The translations under genes were made by a program, and so were the position numbers. A stretch of DNA of 64,000 nucleotides from Raillietiella orientalis (Eukaryota), in the NCBI GenBank assembly GCA_036172245.1, contig JAYWIR010000026.1, positions 1,426,001 through 1,490,000 of the forward strand, in the 5' to 3' direction. The notes beneath the pieces were generated by a model, which was not told the origin of the DNA, searched no databases, and saw nothing but the letters and a program-made list of their open reading frames with translations. This document shows positions 13,241 to 61,330 of this stretch, in pieces; positions within the stretch are counted from its first letter, which is position 1, and each line of letters begins with the position of its first letter.

Positions 13241-14110
13241 ATGCAGCCATTTAGTAACGAAAATGAATCAAATGAATCTTCCAAAGATGTTCCTTGGTGG
13301 CTGAGATATGGTGGTCGTGGAGCAGGTTGTATTACAGGCGTAGGTACGTTAAAATTCACGTGTTGATATTTGAAATATGAGTTTTTGGCACATTTTAGTT
13401 GCCTTGGTGCTTGGTATTTTCAACTGTATAACTTTATCCCCAATTTGTATGGTAGCTGGAGTTTGGCAAGTGTAAGTTGGCTCTTTTCACAAGTTATAAG
13501 ATATGCTCCTTGTTTTGATTAATCAGAATGTAGCTCTTGTTTGCATCAGTGTAGCATCATCTGAATTCAGTGTGTGATGTATAATGTATACATATCTTGC
13601 AGCATTAATTTAACAATGAAACCATAATGAAATTTGAAATTTAAATTAAGCTTCTGTTCAAAACTACTTTGTAGGATGGCTGCATTTGTAGTATTAGTGC
13701 TTGAGGCTCCATGTCTATGTATGTTTTTGGATTTTGTTCAGAAGTTTAGTGATTGGATGGATAAACGTGAATATTGGAATAAAGCTCTCCTGTATTTACT
13801 GTTAGTATTCATGGATAATTTTTTTCCACTACCTAATATTTGGAATAGGATTTCTATGCCTGCTGTTATACTGTGTGCAGGATTGTCTACTCTAATTGGA
13901 AGTGGACTTATATTTGCTACAGGAGTCATCTATGGAATGATGGCATTAGGCAGAAAGTGATTTATTCATATATCAATGATACATAATTTGTTTTTGTTAC
14001 TTTTCAGAGCAAGTCGTAGTGACATGCTAGCAGCTGCTAGCACTGGTTGGAGAGCTCGTTCACAAAAAAATTCACTAGTCGATGATCCAGATGTGTGGAG
14101 AGCCACATAG
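13241..14110 (+). CDS. fwe: Calcium channel Flower homolog (CACFD1/fwe), 170 aa, 5 exons: 13241-13343, 13399-13471, 13675-13800, 13849-13956, 14008-14110
   Basis: All introns are GT-AG and phase-consistent. The protein reads DVPWWLRYGGRG...CMVAGVWQVMAAFVVLVLEAPCLCMFLDFVQKFSDWMDKREYWNKALLY...[26 protein letters not shown]...DDPDVWRAT*. The LEAPC motif and DPDVWR C-terminus are typical of arthropod Flower. AATAAA at ~14189. Confidence 0.93.
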
Positions 14111-26157: not shown

Positions 26158-26506
26158 TAAGACCTCACTTTATGCAAAAAAACAAAGATACAGAAATACA
26201 AGGAGGACACTATTGGGATCCAATGGAAAATAAATGCTTGTTTTATTACCGTGGTAATATTGGCAGGTGGGATTGGCCAAGGGCCACTGAATCAAATCGT
26301 GAGTAAATGTGTCGATTTCTCACTCAGAAGCTTTCATCCAGTATTTTTTTCTTTGTTATCAGCTTGGATTGCCAATTTTGGAAGTTGACTTGAGGATAGA
26401 TGTCTAATCAGTTTCGTAGTAGCTTCAAAAGATAGGGTTTCTTGGGGCTCTTTGCCTTGCTCTTGGCTTTCTTTGTGTGAATGCAGTTCTCTTTTTCAGC
26501 TTTGGT

Positions 26507-27498
26507 ATGGCGGAGTTGGACCTTCTGTGCAATTATAAGAAATGTCGGGCACGGCTGGTATCCACTGTGTGGATTACTGTGTGCTCCCATGTTTTCTGTG
26601 ATGAGCATGGCAGTCAGGAAATGGCCAAAGTGCCCACCAATTGTCCAGCTTGCCAGAGCTCCCTAAGTGGCAAATTTGATGTATCACGCAAGGATCTGAA
26701 TCCCTCTGAACATTGGAAAGCTGTAAGGTGCCTGCTGGCTGAAGTGCTTAGGCTCTGCATAGATGGTGCTTAGTGGTCTTCGTCCTGAGATCATCTTGGA
26801 CATTTGCCAAAGGGCCATCTCGTTTTGGATCTTCCAGATGCAGTCTCAGTGGAGCTATCAGGAACAAGTGGTGCAGCAATATAATGAACGTTTACTGCAA
26901 CTTGAGGATTACTATGAGCATTTGCTAGGAAAAGCACAGCTGGAAAGTAGTGCAATGAAACGTTTGCTGGAAGGTGGCACATTAGAGATTTCCTGGAACA
27001 ATAGTGTAGTTACCGTTTATAGCTGCCAAACATGAAAATGAGGAAAATCGACGAAAGAATGATGAGATGGCTGACAAGCTGCAGGAAAAAAGCCGCCAAT
27101 ATCAAAAGTTGCAGGTGAGCAAGTGTTGTTTGTTCATAGGAAAAGGACAGAAAGCTGTTGATAGGTGCTGAATAATTCATTGCGCTGTAAGCTGATTGCA
27201 CGTTCTGATCAGCCTAGATTTGTAGATGTGACACAGTTAGGAGCAGATGAATTGCAGTTCCCCCATGCTGTGTCTGGAACTAAAGCTCCTAAAGCTTCCA
27301 GTAGCACAGAATTTGGTAGGAACTGAAGGTCAACAATTCCTTAAACAGTGTTATCTTCTCCTCCTTGTAGATTTTCAGTTGTTTCCTTTTTCTTCTTCCG
27401 AGAACACTGCTACTTTGCTCCCATCCTCCACTTCCAAAGGTGAGAAACCATCTTATTAACCTTGACTCTCTCCTTTCTATTTCCATCTAGAAAATTAA
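26507..27498 (+). CDS. CCNB1IP1: E3 ubiquitin/SUMO ligase CCNB1IP1 (HEI10), ~248 aa, exons 26507-26722, 26763-26973, 27023-27114, 27165-27315, 27371-27439, 27491-27498 (alternative stop at 27459 if the last intron is retained)
   Basis: The N-terminal RING-like region LLCNYKKCR..WITVCSHVFCDEHG..CPACQSSLSGKFD, then L.PSE.WKAMVLSGLRPEIILDICQRAISFWIFQ and a coiled coil ending EKSRQYQKLQ, closely match vertebrate HEI10. Splice phases are consistent; the last two exons are less certain. Confidence 0.92.
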
Positions 27499-29150: not shown

Positions 29151-31311
29151 ATCTTTGCGAGGTCCTGACTGAATGCTTGGTCAGTAGGAGCTTGATTTGC
29201 TCCGCTACAGGCGTTTGAGACTATATCGAAGAGTTCGATGCGCCTGATGAAAGAACGTTGTAGGGAACAAGCACGTAAACAAAACTGGTTTGGAATGGAT
29301 ATGTACAAATGCTGACGGGAATGCCCGAGCGAGTGCCCCATCTATGAATGTCTGAGAAAGGAAACGCTAAGGAGAAGCTTCTCGTTTTGGTTTTTGCACA
29401 TGGAGGGACCCTGCCCTTCTGCTTTCCAAGAAATGTTGTCCTTCAGATGTTATTACTAGAGATCTAGGGAGAATCTGCACGTCACCTCGAGGAATTTTCC
29501 CGACGTCCCTACTGTTGCAGGAAGATCCCTCGCAACCGATGGAGTCATCTGTGCGCTCTTGCAGTTTTCTTACCCCTTCCAGAGAGGGGAATCCTCTTCC
29601 ACGGCGCATCTGCGGAGTAACCGTAGGGGGATCTTGTTCACGGATTCGCAGATTCATTGCCTTGGGAGTAGGTTGTTGTTCAGGTTGCGATTCAAGTTTG
29701 GAAGCCCAAGATTTGCAGCAGCACCTTTGGGATTCCGAGCTGTCCTTGCACTGAGTTCCCGTGAACCTTATGGCGGTTCACGCATGTGGCAAACTCTTCC
29801 ACGCGAGTCATCCTCTGATTGGCTGTCCTCTGCTTTTTCCGAACGGCGGTCACAATGTGGCGTGCTTATTTCAAGTGGACATGGTGAGTGATTAGACGGA
29901 TCCATTCGTCGCTAGGTTTCCTTTGATTATTCGATTTTCCTTTGCTTATGATTTCTGACTCTCCTCATTTCGCTCCGTTGCGCCTCTTTCCCAATCACCA
30001 GATGGACCCGACCTGCTTTTTTTCTGTCTAGCGCGGTGCCGCGAAGACCGCGGGAAAATTTGCATTGGTCATCACTTCCCCCATCTCTTTTGCGCTGGTG
30101 CTCGTGTTTCTGTCCTTGCAAAGGATCCTGGCCGCGGATTTCCACTTTCGGAAGGCGTGTCCCTGTCGCAAGACACGTTCTGCTCGCTCATTGAACCAGC
30201 AATTATGTGCCACATTCACACGACTGCGTCTCTTTTTACGGTTGTAAATTCTTTGAGGAGCAAATAGGAACCGTTGGAATTCCTACTTCTGGGGTCCAAA
30301 GTGAGTCTCGGGAAATTTTCATAGTCTCCATCATTTGGTGGATCCATCGTTGGTGGGCGTGCAGCTATTTTCTTGGGTCTGTCGGCGGCGATGTTTCGTT
30401 GTGCATCAATCCGGTGTCAAGCCGGGCGATTCCCTGATGCACGTGTGTGTGTGATGGGCGTAGTTGGGCAGGCTGAGTCATCAACATGAGCCGAAGCTAC
30501 TGAAAATGATAAATGTGGGCGAGGGTGTGGGTACATTGTACTGCTGCGAGCACCTTTTCTCTCTCTCTCTCTCTTTTTTGTTGGGGACGGAGGAGGAGGG
30601 GTGAAGCCTCTTCTTGTTCTGTCCAGTCCACTATTCGCATCGCGCCTTTTTTCCACGGCTCTTTTCTCAGGAACTGTTCCCAGATCTGCTGACTCACGCA
30701 GCCTTCACCCAGGCTGTCCCTACCTTTAATCGAGCGTGGATGGCCGCCCGACTGCCCTTGCTGGTCTTCTGTCTTCTTTCCGGTCATCTCTCCGTAGAAT
30801 TGATTCCCCCTTGCGTTTAGCGCGCGGCAGCGGGTTGATTGTCTTCGCTTTCCGTTTGCGGGAAGGCGTGGGCTGCTGTGCCTTTGATAAGGGAGGACCG
30901 CTCCGTGTGAAGAAGACGTTTCGCGAGCAACCGAAACCTCCCAGCGAAAGGCGAGCCTTCTCATCACAGATTCTGCGGTTGCCTGCGGGGCCGGAAGAGC
31001 TCCTCGTGCCCCGTCTGGTAAAGAGGATTCACCGCTTGGGGCGAAGAAGACGTCACCGCCCTCTTGGACCTCCTTTCCAGCTGCGCATCAGCCAAGCTTC
31101 CAAGCGAGGGACGATGGAATGAGGAGGATGGGGAGTAGGGCCCGCTCACGCGTGCGCGAGTCAGCAGTAGAGTGTTGATTCACCGGAAAAGTCCACAATC
31201 GTTGGTTCCTGGGACGGCGGTAACTCCAGTGCACCGGCTCCTGAGGGAGACCACGGTCGGGAAGGAATCGATCTGATGCGGATGGGAAGGCTCCTGCCGG
31301 CAGCCTGGTTT

Positions 31312-32185
31312 ATCACCTGGTCACGCCGGGACGTTTATTATAAAAAATAATAAACATTCAGGTGTAGGGCCATCGGTCCTGCATTGTCCGAATATGCTGG
31401 GAACCTGCCGAGTGACCGGAACGTGGGCCGGGGAGGTTCGCCTCGGCAGCGGAGGGGGAGGGGACACATAAAAATAAAAATAAATACAAGTCAATAATAA
31501 AAAAGAAAACTCTGGGGAGGCACGGGAAGGGATTACTATCCCCTGGGGGTCATCCTCTGCATCCTTTCCAGGATGCCGACAAGTTCCATCCGAGTATGTC
31601 CCAGAAGGGACCGTCATGCTGCCGTCTGCAGGAAGCGCAAGGAGAAGCAGATGGCGTCCCTATTGCGCCGTCCATCTCTTGTGTACTCCATGCAGCATTC
31701 ATTGTAGGCAGCAGCAAAGAGCTGCCAAGGCTGCAGCAGGCGAAAGGGCATCGCACACGAAGAGGTGCTTTAATACGTCCCTGGAGTGATCCGTTTATGC
31801 ACCAAGGGCCGTTGCGAATGGCAACCACAGGGGCCAGAGGGCAACACAGTTCACAAGCAGGTGTGGGTGCTGGGATTTCCTCTCCCCGTAACTGCAGCAG
31901 TTTGCGTCCACAGCCCCCCGGGTTCAGTGAGACCGGCGGGCTTTGCAAGGAAGACCCTAGTGCAACAGCAGAAGTGCCGACTCCTGCCACTTCATGGGGA
32001 GGGCTCGGTTTCTCTTCAGCGCTGGGGGCCACTGGAAGTCTTCCTGTAGGATTCCCAGCAACTCACTCCAGCGCAATAGTCCTTTCGGTGGGACCCTCGG
32101 GGTCGCAGCATCCGTGAGCTGACCTGTGGTCCAACCACCCTTCCCTTTGCTCTTTCATCGATCTCACATCGGACCTCCCATTTGG
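31312..32185 (-). mobile_element. 5'-truncated copy (A) of the L1/Tx1-type LINE family (ORF2 C-terminus + structured 3' UTR)
   Basis: Its reverse complement aligns by eye with 39805-40660 (e.g. GGTTGGACCAC.G..CAGCT, AAAGGACT.TTGCGCTGG, GGCATCCTGGAAAGGATG). It ends AATAAACGTCCCGGCGTGACCAGGTG. Confidence 0.88.
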
Positions 32186-36859: not shown

Positions 36860-37763
36860 AAGCGACCTCTTGGGGCACCACGGACAGCGGTGTACGCGCC
36901 GCCTTCCGGATTCGACCTCCCCCCCCGAGAGCAGCCGCGATGCCTTACTGAGTGGATCATCGAGCGTGCTTGGAGGTCGCGCGACCGCACGAAGACCTCC
37001 CGCCGCCTCTCCATCCGGATGGAGGGATGCCCGAGGAAGGTCAAAAGAAAGCCAATGGCCACGGTCCGCGTCGAACGGACATGGGGAGGTTCGGGACTCA
37101 CCTGGCCCTCGGGAACGCCTCCCTCTCCCCCGGCCGAATCCGTCAGAGGAGAAAAGAAACTTCTAGCCAAAGACGTCGGCGGGAGCCTGCAAGAAGCCTT
37201 CCGGCAGAACCGGAAAGAAGGCAGGAAGCGCGCGAACAGGGGGAGCGATCCCCCGCGGCAGTCGACTGCGGCGAGACGAGAGCGACAGAGGGGGGGGAGG
37301 AAGCGCCGCCGCTGCAAGGCGCTCTCAGCAGTGACGCTTATGACCGAGGACGTCGCCGGTCTCAGACGGATCGCCCCACTTGCGGGGCGCACGCGCCGCG
37401 CGAGTGACTGCGAGAGCGAGGGGCGGCGATGTCAGAGTGACGGGAGGCCTTGCTCCGCATCCCTCCTTCCATCGGCAGGGCTGCGGGGTGGGAGCTCTCC
37501 TTCGAAAGCACGGTTTCCAAGCCCCCTTCCCCCTTCCCTCTCCTTCCCTTCCCCTCTCTGCCTTCACGCGCCCCGTCCCCGAGGCACACCCTCCTAGCTC
37601 GACTGGCTCGGCGGCAGACGACGCCGGTCACACTCTGTAAAGCCGCCAACTGGAGCGCGTCCCGCAAACGCCTGCCTCGGGGATCAACGCGGGGTGGCGA
37701 CCGGAGTCTGGGCTCGGAGGCGTCTCCGGGACGGCTTCGCTGCACCCTCGCCGCTCACCCCTA
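36860..37763 (+). mobile_element. Decayed LINE AP-endonuclease-like segment (includes the left arm of the 0.5-kb inverted repeat)
   Basis: Weak APE-like echoes: AVYAPP, DVRVTGGLA...WEL, and a post-endonuclease LCKAANW. Heavily frameshifted. Confidence 0.35.
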
Positions 37764-37844
37764 TCGGCGCGACGCCCAGCGCTCGCGCCGGCGCGTCCCA
37801 CGCGAAGAACGAAGCCGCCCACAGCCCCCTGCTGGAAGGTGAGG

Positions 37845-40665
37845 ACGAGCACCCGGGAAAAGTTGCTCGCGAAATTATTGTCGGAGCGACTGGAGCGGGC
37901 GGCGGAAAGCTTCATCATCCCGGAGCAGACATACGCTGCTCCCGGGCGGAGCATGCACGCCAACCTGCTCTTCGTGAACACTTGGTTCGAGTTCCAGCGG
38001 TGTAGAATAAACAAAGGGAACACGGTCGGCACTCCGATTTGCGGGACGTCCGCTGGTGGTTCGCGGGATGGTCGGGAGCTCCAGGGGCCCTCGCGGTCGC
38101 AGTCGACTCGAGGAAAGCTTTCGATTTTCACCCGGGTTTCGCCGGGGCGTTTATTAAAAAATGAACTTTCACAAAGACGTGCTGTGGCTGGACCAGTGAT
38201 CCAGCCACTCCCGAAGAAACAACACAGAACCTGCCAGGTCACCAGTTCGCAGACCGGTACGGTCCACCACGGCAGCAGGGGGAAGGGGGAAAAACAAAGA
38301 AACTAAACAAAAATGAAAAAAAACGTAGGAGGGTGCGTTGCATCCTTCGCAGGATGCCGGCAAGCTCTTCCTGTATGTTTGGATCCAGGTGGGGCCATAG
38401 CGACGCCCTCCTCAAAAATTCGGCGGCGTGCTGGATGGCACCCTTATCGCGAGGTCCTCCTGTAGCCTTGCTCCAAGCGGCGATGATCCCGCGTAGGCAG
38501 CACAGGGCTGCTAAGGAGGTCGAAGGGCGTCGGCGACGAAAAGGGCTTTCAAGGTGTGTCCCTGGGGTTGCCGCAGGGAGGAAAGCTTTCGATTGCGCAG
38601 ACCAGGAGCTCCTGCTGGAGCTTCTGGAACGCTTGGGCTTCCCGGCCTCTTTAATGGCCTTTCTGCGCTGTTGCTGGCGCGATGCGCTGACCAACATTTC
38701 TTTTAGTGGAAGAAACGTGCTCGTTGTGCCGGTGCACCGCGGGATACGGCAAGGTGACAGCTTGAGCCCCTTGCTTTTCAGCACCTACTTCGAGCTGGTG
38801 CTGAGGGCGTACAAGGAGACTCTAGCTCGCCTGCCTCTCTTGTGCCCAGGTCCACCGGCCGTTGCGTCGTATGCAGACGATCTTCTGCTGCTGCTCCCCA
38901 TGTCCACTCCGGCGTCGGCTGTCGAAAATTTTTTCGAGCTACTGCGCCACGGTACAGGACTGGAGGTGAGCAGGGCGAAGTCGTCCGTGGTTGCAGTCGG
39001 TTCGTCGTGGGCACGGCAGCAGGACTGGTTCCGCTTGGGGAACTCCACGGTGCGGTACTTCAAGTACCTTGGTGTGCCGTTGGGGGGCTACTCTCCGGAG
39101 GAGGCGTGGTCCAGCTGCCTCCAAAAGGCCGAGAAGGCGATCGGCCCGTTCCTGGATGGCGAGTTTTTCTTGCCGGAACGGGCCGTGGTGTGGAACACTT
39201 CGTGGCCCCCCTTTTTCGCTACTTGCTTTTTGTTTGCCCCCCACCCTGCGGTGTAAAAAGGAGGACAAAGGACTTCCTAAGGAATGCCCTTTGGGGCAGG
39301 GGGAGGCTCCGAGTCCGCCTTAAGGACTTGTGCACTTCGCGTCGCGACGGAAGCCTCAGCCTCCTGACGCTGAAGCTGCAGCTCCAGTTCAGAACGTTAG
39401 CCCTAGTGGCGAAGTTGTGGAGCACCAGCTGGTGCGAGCCTGCACGACACCTGGTTCAGCGAGCCAGTGGCTGCGCGGGACTGTCTACCTTCCTAGCGCG
39501 CCGCAAACGTCGGTACCTGTTCCACTGCGGACTGGGGCTCCGGCGAGTGGTCAAGCTGGCCAGGGCGAACACCTGGATCTCCTGCTGGCTCGCGAACGGC
39601 ACTGCCTGGTTGCAGGAAAGCCTTCGCATATGGGCCCAGATTGAGGGAGCGAGCCCGGAGTTGCGGCAGCGACCGCTGAACTCCTTTTACAACAGCCGCT
39701 CGCTGCAGGACATCATCGTGCAGCCCGCTTTGAGTGCATGGGCTGAGAGGATCTCCCTAGCTGCGGCTCTGCTCTAGGGAGCACCTGGGCAGTAGTCAAC
39801 CGGCCAAGTGGCAGGTCCGATGTAGAATCTCCATGGGAGAGAGGGAACAAGGTGGTTGGACCACGGGCCAGCTGACTGACGCTGCGACCCCAAGTGCCCC
39901 AACGAAAGGACTGTTGCGCTGGGGCGAGCTGCTGAGCATCCTGCTGTATGTACTCGAGTGGCCCCTAGTGCTGAGGAATACCCGGACCCTCTCCCTTAAA
40001 TGGCAGGAGTCTGCGTTTCTGGTGTTGCATTGGGGACTCCCCAGCAACGCCTGCCGATCTCACTGGACGAGGGGGGCAGTGGACCCGAACTATGTCAGGT
40101 GCAGGATACGGGAATCCCTCCCACACCTGCTTCTTGACTGTGTTGCCCTCCGGCCCCTGTGGTTGCGTTTCACAACGGCCCTTGGTGCAACCATGAACTG
40201 CCCTAGAGACGTATTGAAGCGCCTCTTTGTGCACGACGCCCATTCGCCTGCTGCAGCCCTTGCAGCCCTCTGCTGCCTACGAGGGATTGTGGCGGTCTGG
40301 AGCACGCCACTGGTGGACCGAACGATAGGGACGCCATCTGCTCCGCCCTGCGCTTCCTGAGTACGGCAGCCAGATGGTCCCATCTGGGACGTATGCAGAC
40401 TGAACTTGCCGGCATCCTGGAAAGGATGTAGAGGACGACCCCAGCGGAACGTGATCCCTTCCCCACCCACCCTGCTTTTGTAAATAGTGTTTTCTTTTTT
40501 TTGGTTTTTATTTGTCCCTTCCCCCTCCGCTGCAGAGTCGAACTCGCCGGCCTGTGCGCTGGCTACTCGGCAAGTCTAGAATTCTTGTCGGACGTTGTAG
40601 GGCCCATGGCCCTACACATGTTTATTTGTTGTTGTTGTAATAAACGCCCCGGTGCATCCGGGTCT
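37845..40665 (+). mobile_element. L1/Tx1-clade LINE ORF2 (reverse transcriptase + zf-RVT-like C-terminus), disrupted; copy C
   Basis: It reads KLLAKLLSERL...PEQTYAAPGRSMHANL, AVDSRKAFD (split by a nested insertion), RGIRQGDSLSPLLF, YADD (38870-38881) and FKYLGV. A frameshift near 39200 leads to LW...LCTSRRDG.L, a TAG stop at 39775, then HWGLP...C..RESLPHLLLDC. The 3' UTR ends AATAAACGCCCCGGTGCATCCGGGT. Confidence 0.93.
38127..38577 (-). mobile_element. Nested 451-bp 3' fragment (copy B) of the same LINE family, flanked by a 17-bp TSD
   Basis: It encodes LAALCCLRGIIAAWS...WPHL...EELAGILRRM, homologous to 40260-40430. The direct repeat GAGGAAAGCTTTCGATT lies at 38110-38126 and 38578-38594. Confidence 0.92.
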
Positions 40666-43600
40666 TATAGAAGGAGTAGCCGGGCGCGCTTGCTGGCAGC
40701 TTGCTGACGGGCACCGCGTCTCCTCGCGGACTCCTGTGGGGTTGCCTCTGGAGAGGCGACACCCGCGAGCGGTGGGCGTGTCCGAGTAGTCAGTGGCGGT
40801 GCGGAGGGCCTACCGGAGCCCCCTCTGGAGCTCGACGTTCCCAGCGCGCCCACAAGATGGGAAAAAATCCCTCTCCTCGTGCATCGGCGACGCCCAACTT
40901 CGTTGACAAATGCAGCGTGGGCTCACCCTACCAGCAGCCCCGACGCTTGGCGGAGGTAGGGGTGAACGGCGAGGGCGCTGCGAAGCCGTCCCGGAGACGC
41001 CTCCGAGCCCGGCCTCCGGTCGCCACCCGGCTGGCGCGTTGATCCCCAGAGGCAGCCGGTTGCGGGACGCGCTCTAGTTGGCGGCTTTACAGAGTGTGAC
41101 CGGCGTCGTCTGCCGCCGGGCCAGTCGAGCTAGGAGGGTGCGCCTCGGGGACGGGGCGCGTGAAGGCGGAGAGGGAGAAGAGAAGGGGAGGGAAGGGGGC
41201 TTGGAAGCCGTGCTTTCGAAGGAGAGCTCCCACCCGCAGCCCTGCCGACGGAAGGAGGGATGCGGAGCAAGGCCTCCCGTCACTCTGGTGTCGCCGCCCC
41301 TCGCTCTCGCGGTCACTCGCGCGGCGCGTGCGCCTCGCAAGTGGGGCGATCCGTCTGAGACCGGCGACGTCCTCGGTCGGAAGCGCAACTGCTGCGAGCG
41401 CCTCGCAGCGGCGGCGCTTCTCCCCCCCCCCCCCCCGTACTCCCTCCGTAGCGTTCGTCTCGCCGCGGGCTGCTGTTGTGAGGGGATGGCGCGAGGAGCA
41501 GGCCAGGGAAGGGGGCGGTGGCGGCGCTGTCTCCGCTGAGCCCGAGGGCGTCTGTTTGCTTGGCGTCAACACGGCCTTTCTATTTGCCAGGAAGTCGCGC
41601 CCGCGCGAGAAAGGACTCGAGGGCGCGCCGGATGGGGAACACCACTACCGTCATCTGTCCGGAGCTGACCTCCAGGTCGTCCTGGACACTGTTGTCTTTG
41701 GAGGTGGAGGTCGACCGTCCGCCTCCGGGGGTCCCGCTGCGCGCGCTGGCGGGCATTCTGGAGGGGCGGCGGGAGGGAAAAGAAGGTGGGAATCCAGGCA
41801 GACTGGCCGGAAAGGGGGGGGGGACGCAGGAAGGGACCGAAGACCGGGTAGCTCCGACAACGCCCGGCCGTGAGTTCGCTGGACGTGCACGACGACCCAC
41901 GCGGGCTGCTGCCGCTCGGACGACGGGTCTCTGGGATGGTCGCAGCGGAAACCCCCCCTCTCGTCTTTCTCTCCGACGAGATGGAAACCGGGACGTGGGA
42001 GATAGGCGGCATCGATGGTACGGACGGGCGGGTCCGACACCGTGGCAACCGTGCGGAACGGGACCGTTCCCTTTCCGTTGGGTCCAGGCGCGCCTCAGAG
42101 ACTTTCCAGCTCCTCGCCCTGCCCCTCGGAGCGGCCTCCGGCTAGAGGTGCACTTCCGGGAGGCGGCTTCCGCCCCCCGCGCGAGTCCCAGGGTCACGCG
42201 CACCAAGGATTCCTCCCGCGGAGCGAGACGGAAAATCCTCCTCTGCTGCTGCTGGACCTGAGGGCTCCTGCCCTCGCCGGGGCTGCCGGGAGACCTCTGC
42301 AGGCGCAACGGGGAGAGGACTGACGGTTGCTGGGTGGACCTCCTCACGTCTGCCGCGCACACGCTCGAGAGAAGGATGGATCTGTGGGGGTGCCGTGGCC
42401 GGCGGAGACGATGACTACGCGGGGTGGCCCGAGGGCAAGCGGTGCGACGGGCTTCCCTGCGGCCGCTCCCCGATCAGAACGAGGAGGCGCGCAGGAAGCC
42501 TGCGGAGGCACGGAGAGAAGCCGGCGCGCGAGCGCGGCCTCTCCCGTGCGGCGAGGGGAGGGCAGGGAGATAGAGAGGGTCTCCAGACAGGACGAACTCC
42601 TGGGCAGGTTCTGCAGAAGAGGGGCGAACCTGCTTTCCGGCGGCGAACCCCGAGGGATCCGTCTCGGGCCCGGCCCGAGGGACCGCCTGGGGAGCCGCAT
42701 TGGATGCAGCGGGCCCCCCGAACGTTCAGGGCCCCCCGCCACCGGCCAATCGCCTGCACCGCTCGCTTTCTCGGGTCGCGCGTCCCTTCCGGCGGGCTTC
42801 CCTCGGGCCAGGAGGGCGTCGCGCGCACGAGAAGGCACGCACCCCTCCCTTTCTTTCCGCTGGCCAGTGGCCGGCCCTTTCGAGAATGCGGCAGCGACCC
42901 CGCCGCGGACGACGACGTCAAGACCAACTCTTCCGCCTGCGCGCGTGCGATTTATTGGCCCTGCGCGCCCGAAGCCGGGGGAGGGGAGGAGGGGGAGGAG
43001 AAGGGGTATTTTGCCTCCGGCTCCTCGTGGCGCAGTTCAAGTCGAGGTGCCGCTCGAGATGAAATGAAGAAAAAGGACGCCTTCTGAGAGTAGAGCGCCG
43101 TATCTTGGTGATGGAAGGGGGGAACTGTTTCGCCCCGATTGGCCGGGAAACTCCGGGACCGCGTCAGGGAGAGGTGACCATCGCTCCCTCAAGGGTGTGT
43201 GGGAAGGTGGGGGGGTAGATGGACGAGACGCGGAGCAAAGGGGAGCGCAGCTCTGGGAACCCTGCCGAAGACCTTTCTTCGGCCCGATCCTGGTCGCGTC
43301 TCTGGCGTCTATTTCCGGGCATTGCAAAGGCGGGGGTAGGGGGTAGGGAAGGGAAGGTACGCAGCGCGCGAGGTGATCAAAAACAGAAGAATTCCTACGG
43401 GGAATGCAAAAAAAAAGGCAAAAACAAAAAAAAAGAGGAGAAGATAAACGGCGTCGACGGGTCTACCTCGTGCGGCGGCAGCGCTCGTGCGCGGACAGCG
43501 GGCAATCGCGAAAGTAAAATCCCTTCCTGGTCGCGCGGGCGAGCGATCGCCGGAGGTGGAAAATTAGCGCGCCCGCGCATCGGCGCGGCGGCGTCCTTCT

Positions 43601-51718: not shown

Positions 51719-53450
51719 CTCTTGGAAACGGGCCGCGCTCCGCCCGCGTTCGCTGCGAAGGGTACGGGCGGGGAAAGGGAAGGGAAGGGGGGAGGGGAGA
51801 GAGGGAAGGAAGTTCCTTCGTGCTTTTCCTGCATGCACTCCCAACGGGCGCTCGCCCACTTCGCTTCGCTCCAGCTTCCCACCCTCACCCCCTCGTCCCA
51901 AAGTTCGGTAATCCCTCGCCGTGGCGGGGAGCCGAGACGCGAGCCGAACTTTCCTTCCGGAGATCGGAAGGGGCGACTTCTGCAATGGGGGGCGTCGCGC
52001 CAGCGCTGCACAGGAAGCGGTCAGCTTTGCGCCTGCGCACGCGCTCCTCCGGGACCTCCCCCTCGCGAAGCGCGGGGGGAGTTCGGCTGCCACCCGCGGA
52101 CGCGGCCCCGGGAGGAATTTCCCGTCCGGCCGTCACATCCGGAAAGTTCGACCGGAGGAGCAGCGGTATTTCTGGACGTATCCGGACAGTGGGTCGCCGA
52201 GCATCCGGTCGCGCGCACGCGCACACCGGACCTCGGGGTGTTGCGCGCGCCCAGTCGAAGCGATAAGGTGTGAGAGGACCTCGGCGGGCGGCGGCGCTGC
52301 CTCCTTGGCCCGGTGCAGCGCCCCAAGCCTTTCGCCCGATGGTCTTCACGAGATGCTCCGAGCGCGACTGCTCGCGCAAGCGGTGCCTCGCCAACGAGGG
52401 CGCGCGGGTTGTGCGCGCGCGCGGCAGGCGCGGGTCACGGAAGTCCCTCCCGACCACGCGTGCTCGGTCTCTGCGTGCGGGATTGAGGCTTCGCCGTCAG
52501 GGGTTGCACCCGAATTCCAGAGGCGATGGGAAAGGAGGAGGGGGGGGGGAGCGGCAGCCTATGCTGAGTGGACTGACCTAGAAGTCTGGTGGGACCTAGT
52601 TCTCTTCCCTGCCCCCCCCCCCCCCGGGAAACTCAGCATGGTGCGGGGGTGGAGTGGGTCCGGCAAAGGGTGTTTCCTACGAGGACGGCGCTGCTGTTCA
52701 TCCATGCTTCCCCGCGAGGAGTGCTGGCGGCCAGGGTCCCCGGGGGCACGGTGGAATTCCGAGAGAACCCGAGGCCTCGGGCGCTCTCGCGGAACATGGC
52801 AGGGGAAGGAGGAGGGTCTGCTCCAGCACTGCCGCGACACACATCTGGCGCTCCGTCTGGGTCACCGGCCACGATAATCGGCGCCCGCGGCTGCCATCGG
52901 GAAACGCAGTACCGTTCTTCCGAACAGCTTGTGGCCATGGCGATTGCACTCTCTGGATGGGGGCCACTCCGCCTTGCCCCTAAAGTCAGCTCCTGCCCGC
53001 GTCGGCGGCCGAGTGGCTGCGGTCTCCGCGCGTGCGGCATTCAGGCGTCGCGGGTTCGAATCCCGCTTCGGGAACGGATCGACGCCAAGAACGGGTCGTG
53101 TACTCTGAGTTTTGAGTCCCTCCCCCCGCTGGATGACGCTGCTTGGCCCACGGGCTTCTTCGGGTGCGGCACTGGTAGAAGCTGGGTGCCCCGTCGCCTG
53201 GCCGGGATTGGTTGTTGACTCTCTAGGATCCTTCTAGGAATCAAGGGGTCCTTCGGGGTTCCTTCCGGTTGCGAAAATGGGGCCGTAGCATGGAGCTGGA
53301 TGATGCCCCTCCCCCCTTCTGGAGGGGTTGCCTCTTGGAAACGGGCCGCGCTCCACCCGCGTTCTCTCACTCTCGCTGCGAAGGGTACGGACGGGGAAAG
53401 GGAAGGGAAGGGGGGAGGGGAGAGAGGGAGAGAGAGAGAGAAGGAAGTTC
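51719..53450 (+). repeat. Dispersed ~100-120-bp direct repeat (51719-51815 and 53332-53450)
   Basis: Both copies share CTCTTGGAAACGGGCCGCGCTCC.CCCGCGTTC...GCTGCGAAGGGTACGG.CGGGGAAAGGGAAGGG...AAGGAAGTTC. Confidence 0.8.
52995..53175 (+). mobile_element. tRNA-derived SINE-like element, copy 1
   Basis: A-box-like CGGCCGAGTGG and B-box GGGTTCGAATCCC (53052-53064) within a T-arm hairpin. A non-tRNA body follows that is shared with 58474-58648. Confidence 0.75.
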
Positions 53451-53591: not shown

Positions 53592-53959
53592 AGCGGATCC
53601 TTTCCGGGTTTCCTTCGGAGGGAGGAGAAACGAGGAACGGTCTCCACTAACCGGGGGATCCCTCCTCAGAGGACAAGGAAGAGGTTCCTTTCGTTGTTCC
53701 CTTCGGTGACAACCGGGGTCGACGGTTCCCTTCGGTGTTTCCCTGCCAAGCGTGAGAGGAAACGGACTCCTCCCTCCAGAGTCCTTCCTGGATCCATAGG
53801 GTGATCCCCTCCCGGGGGTAATCCCCTACAGCTTGAAAGGTGACACGCACCCTCGGCTAGAACGGACAGCCTTAAAGAGCTCAGTGGCCCCCTTTCCCCC
53901 CCTCCCTAAGGAGGCAAGCGGTTCTTCAGCTATTGGCGAACCGAAAAAACAAAAAAAAG
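53592..53959 (+). mobile_element. 3' end of a second non-LTR element family, copy 1 (A-rich tail)
   Basis: Highly similar to 59283-59623. It ends in a CGGTTC...GAACCG hairpin followed by AAAAAACAAAAAAAG. Confidence 0.75.
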
Positions 53960-58473: not shown

Positions 58474-58648
58474 TCCCTCGCTGGTGGCCGCATGTCTGCG
58501 CTCTACGCGCGCGGCGCCAGACGTCGCGGGTTCGAATCCCGTCCGAGGAAGAATCGACGCCAAGAACGGTGTGTGCGCCCTGGGTTTTGAGTCCCTCCCC
58601 CCGCTGGATGACGCTGGTTGCTCTCGGTTGGCTTCTGGTGCGGCACTG
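58474..58648 (+). mobile_element. tRNA-derived SINE-like element, copy 2
   Basis: A TGGCCG A-box remnant, B-box GGGTTCGAATCCC (58528-58540) and CCTCG/CGAGG acceptor-like pairing. Its body (ATCGACGCCAAGAACGG...TTTTGAGTCCCTCCCCCCGCTGGATGACGCTG) is shared with copy 1. Confidence 0.75.
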
Positions 58649-58652
58649 ATTG

Positions 58653-59230
58653 ACACCCGGTCACTCCGGGGAGTTTGTTTATACAATAAACATCCATATC
58701 TGTGGCAGGACGATTGATCTTGCCACTTATAACTACGAGAAGGAACCTGCTGGGGGCTGAGACGCAGGTCAGCGGAGTTCGCCTCTGCAGCACAGGCGAA
58801 GACAAACAAAAAGAAAAACAAAGCAAAACAGAAAACACACAGTCGAAAAAAAAAAAGGAAGTATGCTGGTTCGGGAAGGGTTCGGGAAGTATGCTGGAGG
58901 GCGTTCCCTGCATCCTTGTAAGAATTCCGGCTAGTTCCTGTTTGAAGACTCCCAGATGGAGCCATCTTGACGCTATCCTCATGAAGGGGACAGCAAAATA
59001 ATGGCGTCCCTGTCGCTATGGTCTCCTCTGGCGTTGCTCCATGCAGCCGCCACAGTCCCACCGCGTGGGTAGCAATGTACTGCTAGGGGGGGATGCGGGC
59101 GGCGTGAGGGTGTTGTGCAAGAAGAGGCGCTTTCAAACGTCTCTGGAGTTGCCGCCGGGGGTTCCAACGGTCGCAGCAGGCAAAGCGTTCTCAAAGGGGT
59201 AGGAGGGCAACGCAGTCCCCTCGGCAGGGG
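58653..59230 (-). mobile_element. 5'-truncated, diverged copy (D) of the L1/Tx1-type LINE family
   Basis: It encodes RIASRWLHLGVFKQELAGILTRMQ and ..AAAWS.., and carries the same 3' UTR modules, ending CTCCCCGGAGTGACCGGGTG. Confidence 0.82.
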
Positions 59231-59282
59231 AGCCCCACTGGCCTGCGTGCCAGCTCCCAGCAGGCTCCTTTTCGTATTCATA

Positions 59283-59623
59283 AGCGGATCCTTTCCGGGT
59301 TTCCTTCGGAGGGAGGAGAAACGAGGAACAGCCTCCACTAACCGGGGGGTCCCTCCGCAGAGGACAAGGAAAAGGTTCCTATCGTTGTTCCCTTCGGTGA
59401 CAACCGGGGTCGACGGTTCCCTTCGGTGTTTCCCTGCCAAGCGTGAGAGGAAACGGACTCCTCCCTCCAGAGCCCTTCCTGGATCCATAGGGTGGTCCCC
59501 TCCCGGGGGTAACCCCTACAGCTTGAAAGATGACGCACCCTCGGCTAGAGTGGACAGCCTTAAAGAGCTCAGTGGCCCAGGCAAGCGGTTCTTCAGCACT
59601 TGGCGAACCAAAAAGAAAAAAGA
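59283..59623 (+). mobile_element. 3' end of the second non-LTR element family, copy 2
   Basis: Near-identical to 53592-53959. It ends in GGTTC...GAACC plus AAAAAGAAAAAAG. Confidence 0.75.
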
Positions 59624-59934
59624 GGTCCCTCCGGACGGAAGACGCCACCATCTTTTTTTTTTTGTTCTTTGGCTTGTCTATGTTGTGCGTGTACCCCATC
59701 AATCCGGAGATGCATGCGGCAAAGTGTTCTGGAAGATGTGTCGCGAAGATGGCCCCCAAAAAGCTTGGCGAAATTTCTCCGATGAATCCTGGAAGGCAGA
59801 ATGCGGTCGCACCGTCAAGAACCGTCATGGTCAGGCAAGAGGTTGGATCTTTGCACTCGCGCGCGTGGTTTTTTCCCTGAGCAGCAAGTGGCAACACTCG
59901 GACGAACTTAAGTACCATCTACCGGGTGCCATCT

Positions 59935-61330
59935 AGGTGCGCCGGGGCGTTTATTCTTTCGAATAAAACATTTGGAGAATCTGTGGCTGAACCAGTGGTC
60001 CAGCCACGCCCTAGATGTACAAAGCCTGCCGGGTCACCGATTCGCAAACCGGTGCGGTCCACCTCAGCAGCAGAGGGGAGCGGGGTATAAACAAAAACAA
60101 AAAAAAAGTCAAAAATAAATAAAAGAACTAAGGAGGGCTCGGGAAGGGATCACAGTCTGCTGGGGGTCCGTCACATCCTCTCGAGGATGCCGGCAAGCTC
60201 TTCCTGAATGTTGACTTCCAGGTGGGGCCATCGCGTTGCTATCTTGATGAATAGGATGGCGAAGTGGGTGGCATCCCTGTCGCTGGGTCCTCCTGTTGCT
60301 TTACTCCAGGCTGCGACGATCCCGCGTAGACAGCACAAGGCTGCAAGGGAGGCCACTGGCCGAAGCGCGTCGCGAACGAAGAGGGATTGTATAACGTCCC
60401 TGGAGTTGCCTCCGGGGGTTCCCAGGGTCGCAACAAAGAGTTCCTACAGGGGTCGGAGGGCAACACAGTCCACTAACAGGTGGGGAGGTATCATGTTTCC
60501 TCCCGTATCTAACACAATTGGGGTCGACACTCCCCCGCGTCCAGTGGTGACGGCGGGCGTTGCACGGGAGACCCCAGTGCAGCACAAACAGCGCCGACTG
60601 CTGCTACTTCATGGGGAGGGTGCACGCGTCCATCAGCACTGGGGGCCACTTCAGGTGTTCCACCGGAAAAACCAGCAGTTCGCCCCAGCGCAAGAGTCCA
60701 TGTGGAGTGGTACTCGGGGTGGCAGCGTTGGTGAACTGACCCGTTTTCCATTCCCCGATCTTCTTCTCCGTCCCGGAGATTTTAACAAAAACCTTCCATT
60801 TTGCCGCGCTGTCGCTGCGCAGATGTTCCCCGAGGGAGGACAACGCCACAGCAAGGGAAGTTCTACCTGCCCACGCGCTTTTTCGGGGATCTTCCAGGAT
60901 CTCTCGGAGCATGCAGTTGTTGTGCTGCGCGAACAGGAATCTTAGCATCTGTTTCGCGCGTCGCTCGTGGATCCTCGTCCACAGGCGAACGGTATCCTGG
61001 AGACAGACAGTACCGTTCGCGGGGCGGATGGAGATCCATCCCGGGTTGATCCTCATGAGTTTGACCGCCCTCCGAAACTGCAGTCCGCAGTGGCAGATGG
61101 GGCTTCGGAGTGCAAGGCAAGATGAAAGTCCCGCGTTGCCGGTGACCTGCTCGACGAGGAGGCGTGCAGAGCCGCACCAGGTGGTGCTCCAACTCTTCGC
61201 CATGAGGGCAGTTATCCGGAACTCGAGCTGACGCTCCAGCCACTCCAGCGTCAGGAGCCCGAGACCGCCGTCCCGACGTGGAGCGCACAAGTCCGCAAGC
61301 CGGACTCGGGGCCTCCGAGTCCCGGGACCA
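59935..61330 (-). mobile_element. 5'-truncated copy (E) of the L1/Tx1-type LINE family (post-RT ORF2 + 3' UTR)
   Basis: RVRLADLCAPRRDGGLGLLTLEWLERQLEFR..., LHWGLPCNARRHHWTRGSVDPNC and LAALCCLRGIVAAWS... are homologous to 39300-40430. It ends GAATAAACGCCCCGGCG. Confidence 0.9.

Follow-up and report, generated by a model that had tools for sequence, protein, structure and literature searches.

The stretch analysed here, a 64-kb window of contig JAYWIR010000026.1 from Raillietiella orientalis (positions 1,426,001 to 1,490,000), carries five copies of a family of long interspersed elements (LINEs), here called c31, c38, c40, c58 and c59. All of them are 5'-truncated, within or after the reverse transcriptase (RT) domain, and they have one 3' end of about 150 nt in common (Table 1). 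Pairwise identities of 67–75% in self-BLAST comparisons show the copies to be homologous and diverged (c40/c31, 74.5% over 872 nt; c40/c59, 67.2% over 1273 nt; c38/c59, 69.1% over 446 nt; c40/c58, 68.5% over 254 nt), and their second open reading frame (ORF2) terminates as ...ELAGILERM-stop. The copies are several diverged lineages of one L1/Tx1-type family of non-LTR (long terminal repeat) retrotransposons. Their 3' untranslated region (UTR) contains an ordered series of four modules, namely a long stem (module 1), a GC hairpin (module 2), a hairpin that includes the poly(A)-signal hexamer AAUAAA (module 3) and a terminal CCCGG/CCGGG hairpin (module 4). A covariance model made from the five tails and run over the entire window with filters off placed them at 31308-31455(-), 38124-38281(-), 40524-40670(+), 58648-58796(-) and 59924-60076(-) with scores of 130–140 bits, and the only match beyond these five was a partial module 1 at 59216-59322(+) (23.6 bits, E 6e-5). 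A first-pass annotation of the window had listed the same five ends with their ordered modules, the sequences of the terminal hairpins and the decay of this hairpin in the copy at 59.9 kb, and both the sequences and the covariance model bear this description out.

The 3' boundary of the element is defined by c38, which is inserted antisense into the RT-coding region of c40 and thus represents a same-family LINE-into-LINE nesting. As an uninterrupted reference for c40 we used P0113, a more intact member of the family taken from a protein database, whose residues 142-234 and 211-617 are colinear with positions 37845-38125 and 38525-39732, respectively. Because a target-site duplication (TSD) lies in the RT-coding sequence of c40, and because residues 230-234 of P0113 are encoded on both sides of c38 (within 38110-38126 and again at 38579-38593), c38 is a nested insertion. 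Homology of c38 to c59 stops at 38578. A double insertion as the origin of the head-to-head arrangement of c38 and c40 was considered and ruled out, since c38 has a TSD of its own and is simply nested. The terminus of c38 reads ...CCCGGGUGAA (...CCCGGGTGAA; ...GGGTGAA); it is located 4 nt (UGAA) past the terminal hairpin and 23 nt past the AAUAAA at 38150-38155, and it has no A-run. The 3' end of c58, at ...CCGGGUGUCAAU, is bounded by a paralogous flank (52996-53174 versus 58475-58648), and the similarity among the copies drops to background directly past module 4. An A-run of at least four nucleotides that belongs to the element was found in none of the five copies. The end of the element is tail-less, as the first-pass annotation had noted for the TSD-bounded copy, and lies 4 nt after the terminal hairpin.

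Table 1. Copies of the LINE family in the window and features of their 3' ends.
Feature	Positions	Strand	Basis
c31, about 0.87 kb, structure partly decayed (module 2, 7/11; module 4, 4/5)	31308..32185	-	74.5% identity to c40
c40, 5'-truncated LINE (C-terminal part of RT, CCHC-like block, 3' UTR), interrupted by nested c38; 5' end approximate (37.74-37.85 kb)	37800..40665	+	Pfam RVT_1, colinear P0113
c38, 451-bp 5'-truncated insertion, youngest and best preserved copy	38127..38577	-	perfect 17-bp TSD; 28/28 pairs
c58, about 0.57 kb, 3' end bounded by paralogous flank starting at 58648	58649..59220	-	BLAST, covariance model
c59, about 1.4 kb, modules 1 and 2 intact, terminal hairpin disrupted	59924..61323	-	BLAST, P0113 mapping, covariance model
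Sixth, partial copy: module 1 and linker, 79% identity to c58	59216..59282	+	self-BLAST, covariance model
TSD of c38, 3' copy, AATCGAAAGCTTTCCTC	38110..38126	-	perfect 17-bp direct repeat
TSD of c38, 5' copy	38578..38594	-	perfect 17-bp direct repeat
Module 1 (c40), long irregular stem; outer GCUGC/GCAG arms sequence-conserved, inner CCGG helix covarying	40529..40574	+	folding, covariation
Module 2 (c40), GC hairpin, 9-11 bp, 3-nt loop, covarying	40596..40616	+	RNAalifold, covariation
Module 3 (c40), GUUUAUU...AAUAAAC hairpin with poly(A)-signal hexamer at 40639-40644	40620..40645	+	folding, shuffle test
Module 4 (c40), terminal hairpin CCCGG-UGCAU-CCGGG	40648..40662	+	folding, conservation
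Module 4 (c38), CCCGG-CGAAAC-CCGGG, followed by UGAA and then the TSD	38131..38146	-	sequence, TSD

The 3' UTR is about 250 nt long and begins with a pyrimidine-rich leader, after which the four modules follow. The leader (40430-40528 in c40 and the equivalent positions in the other copies) comprises a conserved CCCTTCCC box that is absent in c38, a T-rich tract of 40–60 nt and a CCCCTCCCCC run before module 1. Module 1 had been described as a junction closed by CTGCC and GGCAG; folded alone, it forms one long irregular stem without a multi-way junction. The terminal hairpins of four copies read cccgg-tgcat-ccggg, cccgg-cgtga-ccagg, cccgg-cgaaac-ccggg and cccgg-agtga-ccggg, and in c59 an extra stretch of about 11 nt separates the arms. 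The hexamer of module 3 is changed from AATAAA to AACAAA in c58, which has a UAUAAA just upstream. Conservation is highest for AAUAAAC (0.94), followed by the outer arms of module 1 (0.86) and the arms of module 4 (0.84); it amounts to 0.56–0.64 in those arms that covary (see below), 0.44 in the loop of module 4, 0.39 past module 4 and 0.38 in the linkers. The most conserved tail blocks (0.84–0.94) are therefore better preserved than both the coding body (0.67–0.75) and the linkers. The motif AATAAACGYCCCGG-N5/6-CCNGG is present at three sites in the window (four overlapping matches), with an expectation of 0.00 and no match in 100 shuffles. No curated Rfam family, LINE 3' elements included, was matched at the gathering score in the window or at E<=5 in the interval 38000-40800. 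A metagenome scan with the same motif returned 90 stretches, none of which was alike beyond the motif in BLAST comparisons with whole 3' UTRs (0/90) or had an RT according to tblastn (0/90); they were treated as chance or terminator-like hairpins.

Covariation was tested over 28 pairs in the four modules, using a MAFFT alignment (A2) of the five tails that was not fitted to any structure. Pairing reached 87.1%, compared with 79.9±1.6 in shuffles. Eight pairs were changed on both sides as opposed to 4.1±1.3 in shuffles, none of which (0/500) reached eight, and to 0–2 in slid controls. These two-sided changes occur exclusively in the inner helix of module 1 (4/6 pairs) and in the GC hairpin (4/11); as an example, CCGG/CCGG in the former is replaced with CUGA/UCAG in c58. 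The same two helices were recovered independently by RNAalifold. Covariation supports both of them, the inner CCGG helix in module 1 as well as the GC hairpin. Mismatches at codon positions 1, 2 and 3 in the shared 3' part of ORF2 amount to 0.21, 0.17 and 0.32 between c40 and c31 and to 0.26, 0.21 and 0.41 between c40 and c59. Much of the divergence thus arose in active lineages under coding selection, which implies that the compensatory changes in the tails reflect selection and not decay.

It is very improbable that the shared hairpins are chance features of a GC-rich, palindromic sequence which the copies inherited from one ancestor and which is under no structural constraint. Related copies can beat shuffles without any structure, and folds of the single sequences are better than those of shuffles to a modest extent (z -1.7 to -2.75 across the five tails), as such an explanation would have it. 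However, the slid controls preserve the relatedness of the copies and still fall far short of the eight two-sided pairs. Moreover, the covarying arms stay paired at 56–64% identity, compared with 38% for the linkers, and c38, the youngest copy, forms all 28 tested pairs, three of them G·U and none A·C.

The element had been assigned to the L1/Tx1 type in the first-pass annotation, and protein comparisons support this assignment. Among 84 long open reading frames (ORFs) of the GC-rich regions a single one matched the Pfam domain RVT_1, and it belongs to c40. Relatives were sought by an exhaustive HMMER protein search with the clean RT part of c40 (38579-39253) as the query. The closest ones are P0113 (619 aa, 72% identical, E 2.8e-101) and P0114 (81%); since identities fall to about 30% thereafter, the LINE family is isolated. 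P0113, which itself is without the N-terminus, contains RVT_1 (4.7e-24) and matches human L1 ORF2p (7e-40, residues 3-397) better than R2Bm (7e-17) among solved structures. A clade call from the short RT fragment of c40 had favoured R2Bm (3.6e-14) over human L1 ORF2p (2.3e-10); it was misleading and is superseded by that from P0113. Of the 30 best full-length relatives of P0113, 27 contain an APE domain of the L1 type (PF03372), 21 a zf-RVT domain (PF13966) and one PF14529; zf-RVT was also detected in five of 13 distant representatives scanned, and the named matches to P0113 belong to a tick, to lizards and to frogs. In c40, c31 and c59 a degenerate C-x2-C-x7-H-x4-C block is visible. The C-terminal block of the copies gave no Pfam match to zf-RVT even at E<=10. 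In a set of 98 sequences it aligned weakly and colinearly with the zf-RVT region of P0001 (E 0.0025), H-x4-C being in register. Given that P0113 is closer to L1 ORF2p than to R2 and that its relatives combine APE, RT and zf-RVT, the family can be classified as L1/Tx1-type at the superclade level, at which L1 proper and Tx1 are not separated.

LINEs of the L1 clade that are of the stringent type, with a conserved 3' stem-loop maintained by compensatory mutations, have been described in monocots and, with L1-1_CR, in Chlamydomonas, together with partners among the short interspersed elements (SINEs) (Ohshima 2012, PMC3472496). L1 families without any 3' repeat are documented as well (9/233 in flowering plants and 5/15 in green algae; PMC3472496), and the stringent lineages underlie the proposal that the ancestral L1 was itself stringent, recognising a specific 3' structure (Ohshima 2012, PMC3472496). 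The family studied here resembles the monocot LINE1-1_ZM group and L1-1_CR in having an L1-clade ORF2, a 3' end that is more conserved than the rest and a compensatory stem-loop for which specific recognition by the RT was inferred (PMC3472496). It differs from them in architecture, as a single hairpin within about 45–80 nt contrasts with about 150 nt that contain at least two covarying helices and two sequence-conserved hairpins. Furthermore, L1-1_CR ends in poly(A) and has known SINE partners that share its tail, whereas no A-tail and, in the 64-kb window, no SINE partner was seen here. Finally, those lineages are from plants and algae while the present host is an animal.

Among animal elements, the Tx1-clade LINEs (Tx1L, Keno, Kibi, Koshi and Tx1-Mar) are similar in belonging to the L1 superclade, in their relatives with APE, RT and zf-RVT, and in copies located inside other repeats (Kojima 2015, PMC4494074). 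RT phylogeny defines membership of Tx1, and insertion into specific targets is usual there (PMC4494074). The 3' flanks of the five copies, too few sites to show a preference, have no motif in common. UnaL2 and ZfL2 of the L2 clade likewise possess a conserved terminal stem-loop near the 3' end and no poly(A); their own ORF2 protein is reported to recognise the stem-loop (Kajikawa and Okada 2002; Nomura 2006; Hayashi 2014, PMC4176376). These elements belong to a different clade and end in tandem (TGTAA)n that serves template slippage, whereas no repeat follows the hairpin here. With the relaxed mammalian L1 the family shares its best RT match among solved structures (7e-40), a TSD of the variable-length kind (17 bp), frequent 5' truncation and an AAUAAA near the 3' end. 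Mammalian L1, however, depends on and carries poly(A), and its 3' UTR has no conserved essential structure (PMC3472496), in contrast to the missing A-tail of c38 and the covarying 3' UTR found here.

The novelty suggested by the first-pass annotation was therefore overstated, because both stringent L1-clade LINEs with compensatory 3' stem-loops and repeat-less L1 families had been published (PMC3472496). With the clade already known for such tails, the finding is largely anticipated, except for the animal lineage and this particular architecture. Its new aspects are that the host is an animal, that the architecture is longer and comprises several hairpins, and that the end has no tail; the stringent principle in the L1 clade is not new. 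Full-text literature searches, which do not cover Repbase entries and subscription papers, revealed no description of an L1/Tx1 family of animals whose 3' end is structured and lacks a tail. The finding adds to existing knowledge without altering it. In common teaching, L1 is the relaxed, poly(A)-dependent LINE; a tail-less animal family of the L1/Tx1 type with a covarying 3' UTR would add an animal data point, and its compact RNA element of about 150 nt would be suited to testing specific template recognition by an L1-type ORF2 protein.

The best reading of our data, and in our judgement probably the correct one, is that the 3' tail is of the stringent type and that the ORF2 protein of the element itself recognises it. 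In this model, the ORF2 protein would recognise the folded 3' UTR in cis and target-primed reverse transcription would start at a fixed 3' boundary, with the consequence that little or no A-tail is copied. The AAUAAA, 23 nt before that boundary, most likely directs cleavage and polyadenylation of the RNA polymerase II transcript at the element's own end, whereby the transcript would stop where the element stops.

Several observations weigh against recognition of a folded, tail-less end. Zero covariation was found for the CUGCC/GGCAG closure of module 1 and for the terminal CCCGG/CCGGG hairpin, both of which are conserved in sequence. As these elements never covary, they could be protein-binding sequence motifs and not helices. 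An alternative pairing of the 5' strand of module 1 with the terminal CGCCCCGG (columns 7-19 with 138-149 of alignment A2, corresponding to about 40528-40540 with 40645-40656 in c40) is 87.3% paired, also without covariation (353/500 shuffles reach it), and would open the terminal hairpin; RNAalifold, while recovering the two covarying helices, replaced the closure with this long-range pairing. Given that the local and the long-range pairings are equally well formed and that neither covaries, a conformational switch is possible. The weakest module is the AAUAAA hairpin, whose arms are invariant and without covariation. In a shuffle test for contiguous complementarity, 72, 75 and 112 of 5000 shuffles were counted for c40, c31 and c59, respectively, which marks the complement as unusual in these copies, and c38 and c58 were unremarkable. 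The 5' arm of the hairpin may be nothing more than an upstream element rich in U. Of the four structured modules originally annotated, the inner helix of module 1 and the GC hairpin hold up by covariation, but the closure and the terminal hairpin do not, and the AATAAA hairpin is weak in two of the five copies. Pooled over copies, G·U pairs are as frequent as A·C pairs (nine each), and this tie means that wobble pairs do not identify the folding strand. The covariation sample consists of five copies, plus one partial copy, from one 64-kb window, and these form two or three related groups, which implies few independent compensatory events. With respect to the missing A-tail, the evidence comes from one exact junction (c38) and one paralog-bounded junction (c58), and the TSD of c38 opens with AA, which is compatible with 0–4 terminal A. 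The covariance model detected no SINE or other non-autonomous partner with the same tail in the window.

The position of AAUAAA suggests another explanation, in which the 3' modules serve 3'-end formation and stability of the transcript, and the RT is relaxed and primes on poly(A) like that of mammalian L1. The signal would then combine U-rich elements upstream, an AAUAAA that a hairpin either presents or releases, and a GC hairpin serving to mark or protect the site of cleavage. Of the poly(A), the copies in the window would never have received more than one or two A, or would have lost the rest. AAUAAAC is indeed the most conserved block of the tail, and the 23 nt between the hexamer and the exact end of c38 correspond to a normal distance from a poly(A) signal to the cleavage site. 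The U-rich tract upstream of AAUAAAC and the lack of covariation in the terminal hairpin agree with this explanation, as does the target primer, which, deduced from the TSD, would end in TT and could anneal to a terminal A. However, young insertions of a relaxed LINE that primes on poly(A) normally carry an A-tail, and c38 with its perfect TSD has at most a few A. In addition, compensatory changes across lineages have preserved two helices at a large distance upstream of the cleavage site, which a plain poly(A) site does not need. We thus regard a role restricted to 3'-end formation as unlikely, albeit worth considering.

Covariation demonstrates selected pairing and is silent on the partner and on the step concerned, nor was any Rfam family matched that would hint at a function. 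The structure might therefore act in nuclear export, translation control, packaging into ORF1p ribonucleoprotein particles or protection from silencing or exonucleases, the tail-less end being unrelated to it. The argument against such a role is that the conserved block reaches within 4 nt of the element's end and that similarity stops there, which is the pattern of the RT-initiation tails of stringent LINEs (PMC3472496), and we consider a role of this kind quite improbable.

Returning to recognition by the ORF2 protein, it is tempting to speculate, with considerable doubt, that strictly stringent recognition was retained or re-acquired in an animal L1/Tx1 lineage whose tail is unusually elaborate. 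The two covarying helices could then be the platform for protein binding, and the terminal hairpin could make reverse transcription begin at a fixed point 4 nt from the end. The alternative pairing of the module 1 5' strand, together with sequestration of AAUAAA, might provide a switch, with polyadenylation and translation in one state and priming of reverse transcription in the other. If this were true, Ohshima's proposal of a stringent ancestral L1 would become testable in animals.

A TSD was searched for and not found for c40, c31, c58 and c59. Three of the five copies are located in or beside other repeats: c38 in c40, c40 between the arms of an inverted repeat, and c58 adjoining a tRNA-like repeat. 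The inverted repeat (480 bp, 91% identity, 37290-37763 / 40957-41429) flanks c40 with c38 inside, leaving spacers of about 40–80 bp and 290 bp. The two arms may belong to a DNA transposon or a foldback element that the LINE inserted into, which recalls Tx1-type insertion into transposons. The repeat next to c58 (52996-53174 / 58475-58648 (+), 79% identical) contains a tRNA-like B-box, GGTTCGAATCC, and its copy at 58 kb lies directly against the c58 3' end, in opposite orientation; it is possibly the head of a tRNA-derived SINE. ARAGORN called no tRNA.

The sixth, partial copy has an inner helix of CUGGC/GCCAG and runs on into a different 3' region. This belongs to another retroposon, of which two copies (59283-59624 and 53592-53959 (+), 89% identical) are rich in C-UUCG-G-like hairpins and end A-rich, with …GAACCAAAAAGAAAAAAGAG and …GAACCGAAAAAACAAAAAAAAG. 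The copy at 59 kb directly follows the module 1-like domain and linker of the partial copy. This retroposon, which does have an A-tail, may represent either a lineage related to the LINE family or one of its non-autonomous derivatives.

In composition the window is a mosaic of repeat-rich blocks with 55–69% GC (1-7 kb and 30-64 kb) and a genic block with 33–44% GC (8-28 kb), and the LINE copies sit in the 55–69% GC islands. Most long ORFs of the GC-rich blocks are without a Pfam match. The genic block contains a flower/Cg6151-P-like ORF (13631-13960), whose best matches are from beetles, a moth and spiders at 42–54% identity, and a RING-finger ORF (26423-26773). By these matches the host resembles an arthropod or some other invertebrate. 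A short direct repeat (51719-51806 / 53332-53429, 88% identical) is located inside a GC-rich block.

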